Part shown: in pieces, positions 27,101-34,138 of the stretch | Numbering within the stretch: the stretch's first letter is position 1 | Layout of the letters: every line of letters starts with the position of its first letter | Origin: a virus | Strand: one strand, 5' to 3' | Virus genome (UHGV): UHGV-0091782 | Length of the DNA stretch: 38,471 nt | Notes under the pieces: model-generated | Databases searched by the model: none | Told to the model about the DNA's origin: nothing | Seen by the model: the letters and a program-made list of their open reading frames with translations, nothing else | Translations under genes and position numbers: made by a program

Positions 27101-27847
27101 ATGCGACATAATTTTTCTAAAGACACTATAAAAAAATTAGCAGAGCGGGCAGCATTCATTTGTTCAAACCCTTCATGCCCTAGATTGACCATTGGCCCAT
27201 CAATTGATGGCAATAAATCAATCAAGACAGGAGTTGCTGCTCACATATGTGCAGCATCTCCTGATGGCCCACGCTATGACATGTCACAATCAGAAACAGA
27301 AAGGAAGTCAATTAACAATGGCATATGGCTGTGTGCTACTTGTTCTGTATTAATAGATAAGAATCAGGGGCTAGACTATCCGGCACCTGTATTAAGAAAA
27401 TGGAAAAAAGATCATGAAAGCCTTATAAGCTCCTGTCTTGAAGGTTCGATTAATATTACCTTCGATGCTTTGAAATATATTCAACAGCATGATGAAAGAA
27501 ATCTGGCAAAAAAGATTATAAATGAATTGGATGATAAAGGGGCTTTGTTCGTAGAATATCATCTTGAAAACCCCTGTTTTGTTGCCGAATCACTCAAAGA
27601 GTTAAGAACCTGTTTGACCTCTTTGCTTTCTCAAATCCCAGATGAATCACCTCTATTTATCGTTTGCAAGTCAATTCGAGAAGCATGCCGTTATTATATG
27701 AACAACACTTCTAAAGACGCAGGGATTAAAGAGTTAGAATTTTCGTTGGGAGCTGTCAGAAAAATCGTAGGTATCAACGTTAAAAGAATATCAGAAACCT
27801 ACGGGGTTAAACCTAGCCCACAATTATCTACCATAATGCCAGATTAA
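27101..27847 (+). CDS. AT-rich moron: HNH-like (beta-beta-alpha-metal finger) nuclease-domain protein, 248 aa; candidate defence or exclusion effector
   Basis: N-terminal CSNPSCP...GVAAHICAASPDGPRYD...NNGIWLCATC arrangement (Cys pair, His, Asn, second Cys pair) resembles HNH nucleases lacking the last His; opposite strand to all flanking phage genes; own terminator. Confidence 0.5.
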   Translation: MRHNFSKDTIKKLAERAAFICSNPSCPRLTIGPSIDGNKSIKTGVAAHICAASPDGPRYDMSQSETERKSINNGIWLCATCSVLIDKNQGLDYPAPVLRKWKKDHESLISSCLEGSINITFDALKYIQQHDERNLAKKIINELDDKGALFVEYHLENPCFVAESLKELRTCLTSLLSQIPDESPLFIVCKSIREACRYYMNNTSKDAGIKELEFSLGAVRKIVGINVKRISETYGVKPSPQLSTIMPD

Positions 27848-27897: not shown

Positions 27898-28260
27898 TTA
27901 CTCCATTTCTAAACGAATATCCAGCATCGAGAGACAACCATCTATAAACCCTTCAGCCAACTGTATCTCTATACGTATCAATTTCTCATCTTTTTTGTAT
28001 GCTTTTGCTATCTTCCTTTTCGAGATGCCATACAGGTAATGAGCCACAATCAGAGAGTGCTCATATGGTTTTCTCTTCTTAAGAAGAGCAAGACAACCTT
28101 CAATAATTAATGCATCACTATCTGAACAAGCCTGACGTGTTTTGCTTGTATAGGGAAGAAGCCCTTTAAACCCAGCAGCTATAGGAGAATAGTCTACTCC
28201 AGAACTATCACTCGCCGCCCATGCTCCCCAACGATCCAGAACCATCTGAATATCACGCAT
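27898..28260 (-). CDS. Late-gene antiterminator Q (QuuD / phage 82 Q-like)
   Basis: MRDIQMVLDRWGAWAASDSSGVDYSPIAAGFKGL... matches my recollection of E. coli QuuD; start at ATG 28260 with GGAG upstream. Confidence 0.8.
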   Translation of the reverse strand: MRDIQMVLDRWGAWAASDSSGVDYSPIAAGFKGLLPYTSKTRQACSDSDALIIEGCLALLKKRKPYEHSLIVAHYLYGISKRKIAKAYKKDEKLIRIEIQLAEGFIDGCLSMLDIRLEME

Positions 28261-28277
28261 CAACTTTCTCCACAAAA

Positions 28278-29273
28278 TCAGGCCAGCACGCCAGTTGCCA
28301 GCGCACGATCGATAAAACGAAATATCAGCTCCAGTTGGGAGCCATACTTCTCTTCAAATGCCACGGTATCTGCATGCAGCTCGTCGTGATGCTTTCTGCA
28401 CAAAGGCAACACAAAGAGGTCATGCGCTTTTGTCCCCATTCCTCCCTGACCGTGACCTATCAGGTGGTGAGGATCATCAGCAGACTTTCCACAACATGCA
28501 CACGGCTGCGTCTTAACCCAGCGCGTGTACTTTTCGTTAACCCAGCGGCGACGTTTGGGGCGTAACATAAAAGACTCCGGCGACTCCGGATCCACTTTCA
28601 GCGCCAGCACCTTTTTCGCTTTATCCTGGATGATGCTGGTGGCAGGAACCGAAGGAACAAGGTCACTTTCCCGGGTGACAGACGGCACAACAGGCTTCGG
28701 TAATCTCAGTGCCTTACGGGCTGCACTTTCCGGTAAGGCATCCGCCAGGTCATTACGAACCAGCCACCAGCATAGTTCCGGCATTGTCACAACGTGACTA
28801 TCATCAAAACCGAGATCCCGACGCACAACAGACAACATCCAGCGGGCACAGTTATCCGTTGCCATTGATTCCAGCCGTTCCGTGAACTGATCGCGCAGCT
28901 GGTTATCGCAGTGCCAGCACAGACGGATTGCGCCCGGCGCGTGTCGCATTGTGGTCATGTTCTCGCTGTGCCAGTCGGAATGAGGCCACTGGCAGCCTTT
29001 TTCACGAAGTAACCAGCTTTCAAGACATTCCACTCCACCAGCACGACGGATCACTGCCTCATTGCGGAACACGGCCCGAACGGCAGGATCATCCGCCAGC
29101 GGTTGTGATGCTGCCGGAACGGCACCACTGGCGAAAGATGAATAACGTTCCGGCTCAGACTCCAGCAGGACACGCCCCTGCATAAACAGGGGCATCAGCT
29201 CTGAACCTGGTCTGAACAATACGATCCCCATACGCGGGGCAATTTCAGGGGTCAGTAGTGCTCTCACGGTCAC
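28278..29273 (-). CDS. Lambdoid nin-region protein (DUF968/YdfU-like) with C-terminal HNH-like Cys/His motif
   Basis: ...KTQPCACCGKSADDPHHLIGHGQGGMGTKAHDLFVLPLCRKHHDELH at the C-terminus; position between the replication and Q genes. Confidence 0.5.
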   Translation of the reverse strand: MTVRALLTPEIAPRMGIVLFRPGSELMPLFMQGRVLLESEPERYSSFASGAVPAASQPLADDPAVRAVFRNEAVIRRAGGVECLESWLLREKGCQWPHSDWHSENMTTMRHAPGAIRLCWHCDNQLRDQFTERLESMATDNCARWMLSVVRRDLGFDDSHVVTMPELCWWLVRNDLADALPESAARKALRLPKPVVPSVTRESDLVPSVPATSIIQDKAKKVLALKVDPESPESFMLRPKRRRWVNEKYTRWVKTQPCACCGKSADDPHHLIGHGQGGMGTKAHDLFVLPLCRKHHDELHADTVAFEEKYGSQLELIFRFIDRALATGVLA

Positions 29274-30103: not shown

Positions 30104-30493
30104 TCAGGCGGCTGCACCCGCCGTTTTCTCGTACTTACTGATAGTGATCTCGACCTTCCCTTCCGGGATAACCGGCCCCCACTCCACCAGCATTCTTTTC
30201 ACCTGGCTGTCGTCTTCCCACACACCCGCGTGGGTCAGGGCGTCAAACAGCGCCTTGTTATAGTTATCCAGATCGCGGATCCGGTTATCCGGTGGAAACA
30301 ACACGATCTCCACTGAAGCAGGTGCCGACGTTGGTTTCGGCAGACGACGTAACTGCTCAATGATGGCGGCACACGCCGCGCCCTGGAATTTGCGCCCCGC
30401 CGCGCTTATCAGGCTCTTACCTGCAAACGCCCCTTTGTTGGGGTGTCGCCAGTACGTGTTCACGCTGGGCGGAAAAGGCAGAATCAGCTTCAT
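30104..30493 (-). CDS. rusA: RusA-family Holliday junction resolvase
   Basis: MKLILPFPPSVNTYWRH...RDLDNYNKALFDALTHAGVWEDDSQV matches the RusA pattern. Confidence 0.8.
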   Translation of the reverse strand: MKLILPFPPSVNTYWRHPNKGAFAGKSLISAAGRKFQGAACAAIIEQLRRLPKPTSAPASVEIVLFPPDNRIRDLDNYNKALFDALTHAGVWEDDSQVKRMLVEWGPVIPEGKVEITISKYEKTAGAAA

Positions 30494-30816
30494 ACTTTCA
30501 GGCCCCTCTCATGTAACCAGTAGGCTGCACGCAGCCTAGCGTTTTCCTCACCGGCAAGCAGTGCGCGGATAATCCCGACCGCCTCGCTGTCGTCGTCCTT
30601 CACCGCGGTATGAAGCGTGATCCCCCGGGCCACGCCACGCTTTATCGTGATGACGCCTTTTTTCTCCAGTGCGCGAAGATGCTCCACCGCTGCATTCACT
30701 GAACGGTATCCCAGCATGGTTGCCACCTCCTGATTGGTTGGCGGGAAGCCACGTTCTTTCTGATAAGAAATCAGCATATCCAGCACCTGCTGCTGGCATT
30801 GAGTTAACGTCGTCAT
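30490..30816 (-). CDS. LexA N-terminal DNA-binding-domain protein lacking the S24 peptidase domain
   Basis: MTTLTQCQQQVLDMLISYQKERGFPPTNQEVATMLGYRSVNAAVEHLRALEKKGVITIKRGVARGITL parallels the LexA winged-helix domain; the C-terminal 40 aa are unrelated to the LexA protease. Confidence 0.55.
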   Translation of the reverse strand: MTTLTQCQQQVLDMLISYQKERGFPPTNQEVATMLGYRSVNAAVEHLRALEKKGVITIKRGVARGITLHTAVKDDDSEAVGIIRALLAGEENARLRAAYWLHERGLKV

Positions 30817-31304
30817 TAAGCCCCCACGTAATTCCCTGACAGATACCACTCTTCACCCGATGCAGCGCGCTTGCTGCTTTTCCGTAAACACCGCTCACGA
30901 CGCGCAAGAAAATTGTTTCGCTCTTGCTGGGAGTGGCTTTCACGGAATGCCGCCATCCACACCGTTGCAGCACGACGAAATAAGCCCCTGGACTCCAGTT
31001 CTTCCGCCTGGCGGGTCAGGCACAAAATCACCCGTGGGTCGTTAGTGCCGACATAGAAATTGCTCACAGGTCTGGATTCACGAACTGGTTGCGGTTCCGG
31101 CTCCTGCGGTATCTCAGTCAGGCGAGGGAAATGTCTGCGTGTATCCCCTTCACAACGGTGAGCCACACGCCCACTCTGACGTAACTTGCTTGCTGACTGC
31201 AGAACGCGCTGTCGTGAGTAACCTGCAAAAGCATCCGCAATGTCTCCGGAAGTACACCCCGGATGGGCTTCAATGAATTTCTGAACGTCATTCAAAAGAC
31301 TCAT
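30816..31304 (-). CDS. Putative regulator with PerC-like C-terminal motif
   Basis: ...AEELESRGLFRRAATVWMAAF... resembles the PerC-family signature as I recall it; start at ATG 31304. Confidence 0.4.
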   Translation of the reverse strand: MSLLNDVQKFIEAHPGCTSGDIADAFAGYSRQRVLQSASKLRQSGRVAHRCEGDTRRHFPRLTEIPQEPEPQPVRESRPVSNFYVGTNDPRVILCLTRQAEELESRGLFRRAATVWMAAFRESHSQQERNNFLARRERCLRKSSKRAASGEEWYLSGNYVGA

Positions 31305-31306
31305 GA

Positions 31307-32233
31307 TCACCCCCTGAATCCTGCCGGGATCTGGCTGTAGTCCACGTTGTCGTAACTGGCTTTAAAGTACGGGTCTTCGCGTTTTTCTGTGTACGTGCTG
31401 ACGGACGGTGATAAGCGCAGGGAAAGTTCATCCCATTTTTCCCGCAATTTCGATGGGCTGAGGACGTTACGGCACCAGAACGGGTCACGACTGACGCGGC
31501 TGTACATCTCGCAGATTTGTTTGTGAGTGCGACCATCCTGAACACACATCAGGCGAATTTCGTTTGCCCAGGCTGTCCAGTTTGGTTCTTTGGGACGAAC
31601 CACCTCGCCGTCACATTCGGCGGCCTGCTCGTACAGGGCTATGATTTTTTTCCAGAGCCACTGTGCGCAGGTCAAATCATCCTGCGTTCCCCACTGGCGC
31701 TTTTTAGGGCTGAATACAACCGCATCAGGATGGCGAGTTAAAAAATCCTGTTCAGCCTTCTGCGTGTCCGGTTGCGAAGCGTCCGGACGAGAAGGTTTTT
31801 TATCTGACGGATCATGTTTTGATTTTACTGACGGATCCCCGCCAGATTCTGACGGGTGAAAACCCGCTTTTTTGCCAGATTTCGACGCATCAAATTTTGA
31901 CGGGTCAGATTTTGACGGGTCAGAATCTGACAGTTGAGAAAGTGCCGCAGCCTGAAGCTTTGCAACGTTAAGCTGATAGACGTTCGACGCATTGCGGTTA
32001 CCCTGTCGACGCGCCTTACGCGTTAACCAGCCTTCTGCTTCCAGCCGTGCGATAGCCGTTCTTACAGTACTCACCCCTGCGCCAATCTGGCGGGCAATGG
32101 TTTCAATTGATGGCCAGCACACACCTTCGTCATTACTGAAATCAGCCAGGCGGGCCATAATTGCCACACTGGATAATTTCATGCCTGACGCTGCGCAACC
32201 ATCCCATACATAGCCGGTTAATTTAGTGCTCAT
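31307..32233 (-). CDS. Putative replication initiation protein (N-terminal winged-helix/HTH domain, internal iteron-encoded repeat linker)
   Basis: Position downstream of the cro/cII-like genes; HTH-like N-terminus; repeated DPSKSDPSKFDASK... segment encoded by the TGACGG iterons. Confidence 0.55.
   Translation of the reverse strand: MSTKLTGYVWDGCAASGMKLSSVAIMARLADFSNDEGVCWPSIETIARQIGAGVSTVRTAIARLEAEGWLTRKARRQGNRNASNVYQLNVAKLQAAALSQLSDSDPSKSDPSKFDASKSGKKAGFHPSESGGDPSVKSKHDPSDKKPSRPDASQPDTQKAEQDFLTRHPDAVVFSPKKRQWGTQDDLTCAQWLWKKIIALYEQAAECDGEVVRPKEPNWTAWANEIRLMCVQDGRTHKQICEMYSRVSRDPFWCRNVLSPSKLREKWDELSLRLSPSVSTYTEKREDPYFKASYDNVDYSQIPAGFRG
31801..31933. repeat. Iteron array (5 perfect and 2 variant copies of an ATYTGACGGRTC-type motif) inside the replication gene; candidate origin
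   Basis: tgacgg at 31805, 31829, 31850, 31898 and 31913; variants ttcgacgc at about 31880 and tctgacag at about 31925. Confidence 0.5.
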
Positions 32234-33376: not shown

Positions 33377-33399
33377 ATATGTACCTCCAGTGTACATAT
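33377..33399. promoter_or_regulatory. Operator palindrome ATATGTAC-N7-GTACATAT overlapping the probable PR -10 / start region
   Basis: Perfect 8-bp arms read in sequence in the cI-cro intergenic region. Confidence 0.55.
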
Positions 33400-33427
33400 T
33401 ACATGATTGAAATGAACCTTCAAGATA

Positions 33428-33448
33428 CTTGTACCTTAACGGTACAAG
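33428..33448. promoter_or_regulatory. Operator palindrome CTTGTACC-TTAAC-GGTACAAG near the probable PRM -35 / upstream of PR
   Basis: Perfect 8-bp arms sharing the TGTAC half-site with the first operator. Confidence 0.55.
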
Positions 33449-33463
33449 GGTTTTAATTTCGTT

Positions 33464-34138
33464 ATGAAAACAATCCATGACATCCGGCGGTCTAACGCCA
33501 GAAAACTGAGAGATGGTGTTGGCGGGAATTCTTCCTTTGCCACTATGATTGATCGCGAGCCAACCCAGACCAGCAGGTTTATGGGAGATGGTGCTACTAA
33601 AAATATCGGTGACAGCATGGCACGACACATCGAAAAATGTTTCGACCTGCCTGTCGGATGGCTCGATCAAGAACACCAGACAACGAACATCACAAAAAAA
33701 CCTGATGTTTCAATCACTAATAAACAAATCACATTAGTCCCTGTCATATCATGGGTACAGGCCGGAGCATGGAAAGAAGTTGGATATTCTGAGGTTGATT
33801 TGAGCACAGCAGAAACGTATCCCTGCCCTGTACCCTGTGGGGAAATGACTTATATCTTGCGGGTGATAGGTGATTCAATGATTGATGAGTACCGCCCGGG
33901 AGACATGATTTTTGTCGATCCTGAAGTACCTGCCTGCCACGGTGACGACGTTATTGCATTGATGCACGATACAGGCGAAACCACCTTCAAAAGGTTGATA
34001 GAAGATGGGACACAGCGTTATCTCAAAGCGTTAAACCCAAACTGGCCTGAGCCTTACATTAAGATCAACGGTAATTGCTCTATAATTGGTACAGTGATTT
34101 TCTCAGGAAAACCAAGAAGATACAAAATCAAAGCCTAA
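33464..34138 (+). CDS. cI: CI-type prophage repressor (N-terminal DNA-binding domain plus C-terminal S24 LexA-like autopeptidase domain)
   Basis: C-terminal ...VIGDSMIDEYRPGDMIFVDPE...TFKRL... contains the Ser and Lys catalytic dyad context; divergent from the cro-like gene; apparently leaderless-type start. Confidence 0.85.
   Translation: MKTIHDIRRSNARKLRDGVGGNSSFATMIDREPTQTSRFMGDGATKNIGDSMARHIEKCFDLPVGWLDQEHQTTNITKKPDVSITNKQITLVPVISWVQAGAWKEVGYSEVDLSTAETYPCPVPCGEMTYILRVIGDSMIDEYRPGDMIFVDPEVPACHGDDVIALMHDTGETTFKRLIEDGTQRYLKALNPNWPEPYIKINGNCSIIGTVIFSGKPRRYKIKA

Follow-up and report, generated by a model that had tools for sequence, protein, structure and literature searches.

A LexA-type DNA-binding domain without the autopeptidase, encoded by an SfV-like prophage and its enterobacterial relatives

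What use might a temperate phage have for the DNA-binding half of LexA? This question is raised by a minus-strand open reading frame (ORF) at positions 30490-30816 of the viral sequence UHGV-0091782, a stretch of 38,471 nucleotides (hereafter the window) that represents an SfV-like prophage adjoining thrW/proA. The ORF, referred to below as the LexA-domain gene, starts with ATG and comprises 108 codons; the coordinates and translation given for it in a preliminary description, made from the sequence alone, proved exact. The same coding sequence is present in the RefSeq record NZ_CP031215.1 (Escherichia coli, 100% identical to the window), where its product is named ‘LexA family transcriptional regulator’.

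The LexA-type domain and its C-terminal tail

Residues 1-65 of the 108-residue protein match the Pfam profile LexA_DNA_bind (PF01726) over its full length (positions 1-65 of 65, E=3e-19), with a score of 69 bits against a family cutoff of 23.7 bits. BLASTP aligns residues 1-90 with E. coli LexA at 43% identity (E=1e-21), and the top sequence matches in the PDB are the LexA entries 1LEA and 3JSO. An AlphaFold model of the protein, with a mean predicted local distance difference test (pLDDT) value of 76.7, consists of three helices and a beta hairpin, followed by an ill-defined linker (residues 69-74) and two further helices, and the LexA-DNA complex 3JSO superposes on the N-terminal part of this model with a root-mean-square deviation (rmsd) of 1.2 Å over 68 columns (Foldseek). 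The similarity to LexA is thus far above the level expected by chance, and the profile match, the alignment and the structural overlay all bear out the LexA N-terminal winged helix that had been proposed for this protein.

The absence of an S24 peptidase domain, also part of that proposal, is likewise confirmed: Pfam returned winged-helix families alone for the 108-residue protein, whose chain ends at residue 108, and the NCBIfam lexA equivalog TIGR00498 was aligned over positions 1-91 of 203, with a score of 70.6 that falls below its cutoff of 110.95. The protein therefore has the DNA-binding domain of LexA but lacks the S24 autopeptidase; it is homologous to LexA without itself being a LexA, as the defining protease feature is missing. 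Unlike E. coli LexA, it is devoid of the S24 dimerisation and autopeptidase domain, and hence of the Ser119/Lys156 pair; a two-helix tail takes the place of the C-terminal domain, and the gene is borne by a phage, in a nin-like operon. Because there is no autopeptidase domain, RecA-stimulated self-cleavage cannot inactivate the protein.

The preliminary description had regarded the C-terminus as short and unrelated to LexA. It is short, but not simply unrelated: residues 71-90 can still be aligned with the linker and cleavage-site region of LexA (BLASTP and PDB sequence matches), and residues 75-103 form a conserved two-helix tail. The tail pattern is common to relatives down to 40% identity, with A97 and L101 being invariant, and is present in the representative sequences P0123, P0126, P0127, P0131, P0137, P0161, P0174, P0197 and P0237. 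Across 56 distinct E. coli alleles, the ratio of non-synonymous to synonymous substitution rates (dN/dS) is 0.056 (0.013 for the N-terminal domain and 0.11 for the tail), while 75 alleles of a second subgroup yield a value of 0.20 that is similar in both parts of the protein (0.19 for the tail). The C-terminus is consequently a conserved module under purifying selection rather than a leftover, and we infer that it serves as a dimerisation module replacing the S24 domain. A comparable architecture, in which a winged helix is combined with a small helical C-terminal module, is found among repressors of the BlaI/MecI/CopY type, to which weak whole-chain Foldseek matches were obtained (e.g., 2G9W); there is, however, no sequence-family match, and with TM-scores of approximately 0.5 and a large rmsd the resemblance is an architectural analogy only. 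The tail was also considered as a mimic of the cleavage loop, acting as a trans-substrate for LexA or CI. Residues A88-G89, in the motif LLAGEEN, do align with A84-G85 of LexA, yet this idea was rejected, as the motif is not kept in distant members of the family and the segment is predicted to be helical. The protein itself contains no protease that could act on this site.

The protein matches phrog_362 (PHROG 362, ‘transcriptional repressor’) over its entire length, tail included (residues 1-108 against positions 1-106 of 106, E=1.4e-58). As a sequence the gene is already catalogued, being orf42 of SfV, gp46 of mEp460 and a member of PHROG 362, and a survey of Stx phages lists the family as pham 237 without studying its function. 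The database names of PHROG 362 rest on similarity inference; ‘SOS-response repressor and protease LexA’ and ‘RecA-mediated autopeptidases’ are over-annotations of this gene, and the protease names are wrong. No experimental work on the enterobacterial PHROG 362 family was found in the literature searched. What appears to be new is that the protein would represent a second, independently derived and tail-bearing form of a phage-truncated LexA.

The gene is widespread. It shares 96-97% nucleotide identity with genes in SfV (orf42), SfII, mEp460, Stx2a_1447, Stx2c phages and others, is carried by phages with differing immunity and virion modules (SfV, mEp460, Stx2a_1447, Stx2c, cdtI and SfII/SfIV), and was detected in 2233 of 5426 complete E. 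coli genomes (41%), Stx2 phages included. An exhaustive profile-free search returned full-length relatives at 40-53% identity in which the winged helix is likewise followed by the two-helix tail. The matches in the phage collection derive nearly all from phages of the Enterobacterales (Escherichia, Shigella, Klebsiella, Salmonella, Edwardsiella, Proteus and Hafnia), the two weakest falling outside this order, while in a single-protein scan of genome contigs all matches were true LexA-like N-terminal domains.

The recognition helix, SOS boxes and operator searches

The DNA-contact residues of LexA are Ser39, Asn41, Ala42, Glu44 and Glu45 (PMC3091678). Alignment of the phage protein with E. coli LexA places S39, N41, A42, V44 and E45 at these positions, such that four of the five contacts are kept and Glu44 is replaced by Val. 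The nearest true LexAs display the pattern S-[AP]-N-A-A-E-[ED]-H-L at the recognition helix, and S39, N41, A42 and E45 are retained in the main lineages of the family. By these residues, the helix clearly belongs to the CTGT-box type of LexA, although one contact is systematically altered.

A link to the SOS response is suggested by a Klebsiella-type subgroup of relatives, whose proteins are approximately 42% identical to that of the window and also belong to PHROG 362. A small ORF (phrog_1813, 77-101 residues, no Pfam match) precedes the LexA-domain gene in 28 of the 34 loci of this subgroup, and a near-consensus SOS box heads the unit in all 28 loci that possess phrog_1813 and in none of the six that do not. 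The layouts observed are a box followed by the small ORF and the LexA-domain gene, a box followed by dinI, the small ORF and the gene (18 loci), and a box followed by recA, with or without dinI, the small ORF and the gene (3 loci); the DinI and RecA assignments were confirmed by Pfam. In locus L097, for example, the promoter lies downstream of a strong terminator and consists of TTGACC, a spacer of 17 bases and then an SOS box; the box and the -10 element overlap, and there is no other palindrome at this promoter. The promoter of locus L085 is similar in its arrangement. Since an SOS box heads the operon, these phages would make the uncleavable LexA domain upon cleavage of host LexA, together with RecA modulators. 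The SOS-box operons of the relatives thus suggest, by association, an SOS-related role for the family. The window contains no homologue of phrog_1813, whose product is a possible partner protein.

To search for LexA operators, as the preliminary description had proposed, the pattern CTGT-N8-ACAG with one mismatch was combined with a 20-mer consensus score. Both the pattern and the scoring scans of the window failed to reveal a canonical SOS box in the regulatory regions of the prophage, the only canonical boxes in the window being a tandem pair, TACTGTTTATTTACACAGAT and TACTGTCTACAAACGCAGTA, at the left edge of the prophage (Table 1). These precede a frameshifted DinI-like pseudogene (4362-4579) between an annotated tRNA-Pro and the acyltransferase gene of the prophage, and are a possible candidate target in trans. 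No spacing was enriched when CTGT/ACAG half-sites were examined in the window at other spacings and orientations (0-24 bp), and its intergenic regions contain no recurrent palindromes besides the CI/Cro operator TGTAC-N7-GTACA. The LexA-domain gene is without flanking non-coding DNA and travels among differing phages, which argues against a target that is a cis site carried along with it; the lack of a cis site in the prophage, together with the spread of the gene over differing immunity and virion modules, would fit a target outside the phage.

Two further SOS-box-like sequences were observed among E. coli relatives. A perfect extended SOS box, TACTGTTTTTACATACAGTA (TACTGT-N8-ACAGTA), lies within the cI coding sequence of the mEp460 type (mEp460 itself, locus L201, 6965-6984, and also loci L002, L005, L006 and L008); 0.01 occurrences are expected by chance, and the window lacks this box. 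LexA-type proteins might use it as a target in cis. The LexA-domain gene was found in every one of the 13 phage records that have this cI allele, a co-occurrence for which physical linkage could account. Downstream of Q, at least 18 of 80 E. coli-type loci (L004 at 11868, L008 at 10531 and others), as well as loci L086-L088 and L113, have a 350-codon DNA methylase gene in which codons 3-9 overlap a second palindrome of the SOS-box kind, TACTGTAAAAATAAACAGTG; this one, too, is lacking in the window.

Expression and possible functions of the protein

The LexA-domain gene lies in a nin-like region, with the replication genes on one side and Q on the other, a context that recurs in three subgroups of relatives. 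From 33141 to 27898, the minus strand encodes, in this order, a CII-like protein, several small ORFs, an O-like replication protein, the PerC-family protein YfdN, the LexA-domain protein, RusA, a KilA-N protein, a DUF968/HNH-like protein and Q. The part of a cleavable repressor of the CI/lambda type, defined by a Cro/CI-type helix-turn-helix joined to an S24 peptidase and by a gene divergent from cro in the immunity region, falls not to the LexA-domain protein but to the product of 33464-34138, encoded approximately 2.6 kb away, with CI/Cro operators at 33379-33450. A consensus scan, which is of low power, found no promoter just upstream of the LexA-domain gene; from the immunity region to Q, no strong terminator turned up on the minus strand in such a scan. 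Because the prophage repressor carries a Peptidase_S24 domain and the gene belongs to the early-right operon, the gene is presumably silent in the lysogen and expressed after CI self-cleavage, and from the gene order the loss of CI should switch on the operon that holds it. The window prophage would in this manner reach indirectly, through CI cleavage, the outcome that the Klebsiella-type phages would reach through an SOS box. The earlier suggestion that the protein tunes spontaneous induction from the lysogen is, by contrast, unlikely here, given the position of the gene in a CI-repressed operon and the failure to detect a promoter of its own.

The explanation that we favour, if tentatively, is that the protein is a RecA-resistant surrogate of LexA, which would bind CTGT-type operators as a tail-mediated dimer and re-repress LexA-controlled promoters. 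According to this proposal, DNA damage would remove both CI and host LexA, the early-right operon would fire and the LexA-domain protein would accumulate and dimerise through its tail. Its recognition helix, in view of the four LexA base-contact residues that are kept, could then bind CTGT-type SOS operators and, as the protein cannot be cleaved, would bring LexA-controlled promoters back under repression while RecA activity persists. The likely targets would be host SOS genes and, perhaps, genes under SOS control in rival prophages or on colicin plasmids; in the Klebsiella-type relatives, in which its gene shares an SOS-box-headed unit with dinI or recA, the protein would constitute an SOS-induced, uncleavable negative-feedback element. 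LexA(Ind-) mutants, which are non-cleavable and keep the normal C-terminal dimer, and the natural LexA 1-84 cleavage fragment, which binds weakly and is degraded, both present a LexA DNA-binding surface that is beyond RecA-stimulated cleavage, and the surrogate proposal leans on this analogy; the phage protein differs from them in having a conserved tail of its own. A more extensive version of the proposal, in which a phage-made, RecA-proof surrogate present in approximately 40% of E. coli genomes and in Stx2 phages shuts down host SOS during lytic growth along with SOS-triggered rivals (LexA-controlled antirepressors and colicin operons), and forms a feedback module with DinI in the Klebsiella-type phages, we regard as doubtful. 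Of the ‘non-cleavable SOS-box binder’ in the preliminary description, the first half stands, whereas for the second the retained contacts, the presumed expression after DNA damage, the lack of an operator candidate in this prophage and the SOS operons of the relatives lean towards an SOS link and the loss of Glu44 leans away from it. Such a role is plausible, and somewhat more so in view of the SOS operons.

Several considerations weigh against binding to SOS boxes, and most of them would favour a phage-specific transcription factor, be it a repressor or an activator, whose operator, in phage or host DNA, has drifted from the SOS box. None of 68 tail-bearing members of the family has Glu at position 44 (V, A, T, F, L or Y instead), and minor lineages also alter A42 and E45 (SVNTIAGHL, SSNAVLLHL and SQNTVFIHL). 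Enterobacterales should all share one SOS box, so that such variation in the recognition helix fits diverging specificities. Moreover, high-affinity binding by LexA requires a dimer of defined geometry; dimerisation by the tail is a prediction, and with a dimerisation module wholly unlike S24 the half-site spacing need not be 8 bp. The SOS-box operons, found in relatives of approximately 42% identity, bear on the regulation of the gene and not on the binding site of the protein. A precedent is furthermore provided by gp6 of the Betatectivirus GIL01, a truncated LexA homologue that activates the late promoter P3 and, despite 44% identity to host LexA, binds the palindrome GaCACAnnTGTGaC and not the Bacillus LexA box (PMC6182141); it is the only characterised phage truncated LexA found in the literature searched. 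Like the protein of the window, gp6 is a LexA DNA-binding domain without the protease in a temperate phage, and its expression early after DNA damage lifts repression resembles that presumed for the LexA-domain gene. As no BLASTP alignment between the two proteins was obtained at E <= 100, they would seem to derive from different host-type LexAs, and their sequences point to a shared design, not shared descent. However, gp6 comprises 66 residues and has no tail, and the phage of the window uses Q antitermination for its late genes; with a standard Q antiterminator present, no late activator is needed. The window contains no match to the gp6 site at up to two mismatches, and, as reported above, neither a recurrent intergenic palindrome other than the CI/Cro operators nor an enriched CTGT/ACAG spacing was found there. 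An operator in cis would have to travel with the gene, which has no flanking non-coding DNA, and at the Klebsiella-type promoters the SOS box is the sole palindrome. A phage-specific factor functionally akin to gp6 is, in our view, somewhat less likely than the surrogate but a serious rival to it.

Two other explanations fare worse. The protein might assist recombination or DNA processing, not as a transcription factor but as a DNA-binding factor that targets or modulates RusA or the DUF968 HNH-like protein, as could be surmised from the translational coupling of its gene to rusA and from conserved linkage: the LexA-domain gene is followed by that of RusA in all 80 E. coli-type loci and in 78 of 80 P0131-type loci, and the DUF968 partner is found in 74/80, 33/34 and 76/80 loci of the three subgroups. 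A conserved nin-like gene order would nevertheless account for this linkage without a functional tie, RusA is missing from most Klebsiella-type loci (5/34 have the type of the window and 5/34 another type), and beyond a sequence-specific winged helix the protein exhibits no junction or nuclease feature. A fusion of the LexA domain with the HNH-like half of DUF968 is discussed with the neighbouring genes below; it would favour the accessory role, yet it is confined to one cluster and might be an artefact of a deletion that joined the two neighbours. Such an accessory role is, in our judgement, improbable. Finally, the truncated appearance of the gene, the alignment of residues 71-90 with the linker and cleavage region of LexA and the sporadic occurrence of frameshifted copies (P0024, P0030 and P0079) might point to a decaying remnant of a captured lexA that has no present function, but this is contradicted by the dN/dS values of both allele sets (0.056 and 0.20), by the preservation of length and tail down to 40% identity and by the presence of the gene in 41% of complete E. 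coli genomes, and is highly improbable. A role of the 108-residue protein in anti-phage defence was also considered and rejected, as PADLOC gave a weak winged-helix match only.

If binding to SOS boxes is true, a large fraction of E. coli, Shigella and Klebsiella lysogens hold a second, uncleavable and damage-induced LexA. The SOS response of these lysogens would then be altered after exposure to antibiotics such as quinolones, with a possible effect on the induction of Shiga-toxin phages and on toxin yield, and prophages would be able to keep SOS-controlled competitors silent. With GIL01 gp6 as the first, this would be the second case, evolved independently, of a phage that has reduced LexA to its DNA-binding half, and the sign of regulation may be opposite in the two. 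Should the protein have an operator of its own, it would be one more uncharacterised early regulator of lambdoid phages and of modest interest. The prevalence of the family, its presence in Stx phages and the direct testability of an uncleavable LexA make the gene a reasonable experimental target.

Neighbouring genes and other features of the window

The features of the LexA-domain gene, its product and its surroundings are collected in Table 1.

Table 1. Position of the LexA-domain gene, its parts, its neighbours and associated sites (positions are those of the window unless a relative's locus is named).
Feature	Position	Strand	Basis or remark
Complete coding sequence, 108-residue LexA-N-terminal-domain protein	30490..30816	-	Stop TGA at 30490-30492; ORF list, NZ_CP031215.1 annotation, Pfam/PHROG/NCBIfam matches
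LexA-type winged helix-turn-helix, residues 1-68	30613..30816	-	Helices 6-22, 28-35, 40-52; beta hairpin 56-58/66-68; Pfam, AlphaFold, Foldseek
Recognition helix SVNAAVEHLRALEK, residues 39-52	30661..30702	-	S39, N41, A42, E45 kept, E44 replaced by Val; LexA alignment, family motif table
Conserved two-helix tail, residues 75-103	30508..30594	-	Helices 75-88, 93-103; AlphaFold pLDDT ~84; dN/dS 0.11 and 0.19
TAATG junction	30814..30818	-	Stop of the PerC-family gene overlaps ATG of the LexA-domain gene by one base; read from sequence
ATGA junction	30490..30493	-	Stop of the LexA-domain gene overlaps rusA ATG; read from sequence
PerC-family (YfdN-like) protein, 164 residues, upstream in the same operon	30816..31310	-	Pfam PerC E=7e-9, RefSeq; translationally coupled
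RusA Holliday-junction resolvase, downstream	30104..30493	-	Pfam RusA
DUF968/HNH-like protein, conserved downstream partner	28278..29273	-	Pfam DUF968
Q antiterminator, end of the early-right operon	27898..28275	-	Pfam Phage_antitermQ E=7e-52
Prophage cleavable repressor, YmfK/CI type	33464..34138	+	Peptidase_S24 E=1.5e-26; annotation
Tandem SOS boxes TACTGTTTATTTACACAGAT, TACTGTCTACAAACGCAGTA	4301..4348	+	Only canonical SOS boxes in the window; pattern and scoring scans
phrog_1813 small ORF	L085 5713-5961; L097 5589-5894; L110 5725-5958		Invariably follows the box (or dinI) and precedes the LexA-domain gene (28/34 Klebsiella-type loci)

Upstream, the LexA-domain gene adjoins the gene of a PerC-family protein; PerC/Pch relatives are activators of virulence genes in pathogenic E. 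coli. In most relatives, a Dam (N6-adenine) methylase gene lies between these two genes, which adds approximately 650 bp of DNA; it is missing here, as compared with SfV, mEp460 and locus L119. Downstream, the DUF968 partner is of interest in view of P0158, a protein of 240 residues in the representative library in which the LexA DNA-binding domain is fused to the C-terminal HNH-like half of DUF968; such a fusion may hint, in the Rosetta-stone sense, at a functional link, or else stem from a deletion between adjacent genes. Within the repetitive, DPSKS-coding stretch of the O-like replication gene, two inverted repeats, GTCAGATTTTGAC and GTCAGAATCTGAC, were observed at 31904-31931, and these are probably origin iterons.

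At the left end of the window, RefSeq annotates an 82-nucleotide tRNA-Pro at 4039-4120, while ARAGORN finds no tRNA in the window; the annotation may reflect an incomplete or unusual copy of a tRNA at an attachment site. Beside it, a separate islet on the minus strand encodes an annotated HEPN-domain protein (1039-1971) and a hypothetical, membrane-like protein of 327 residues (2757-3740), neither of which returned a PADLOC match. Between Q and the lysis cassette, an ORF of 248 codons (27101-27847) lies on the opposite (plus) strand; its product has no Pfam match but does match the PADLOC candidate defence family PDC-M68A (E=7.5e-27) and the N-termini of endonuclease effectors of the cyclic oligonucleotide-based anti-phage signalling system (CBASS) type, and is probably a prophage-borne defence moron.

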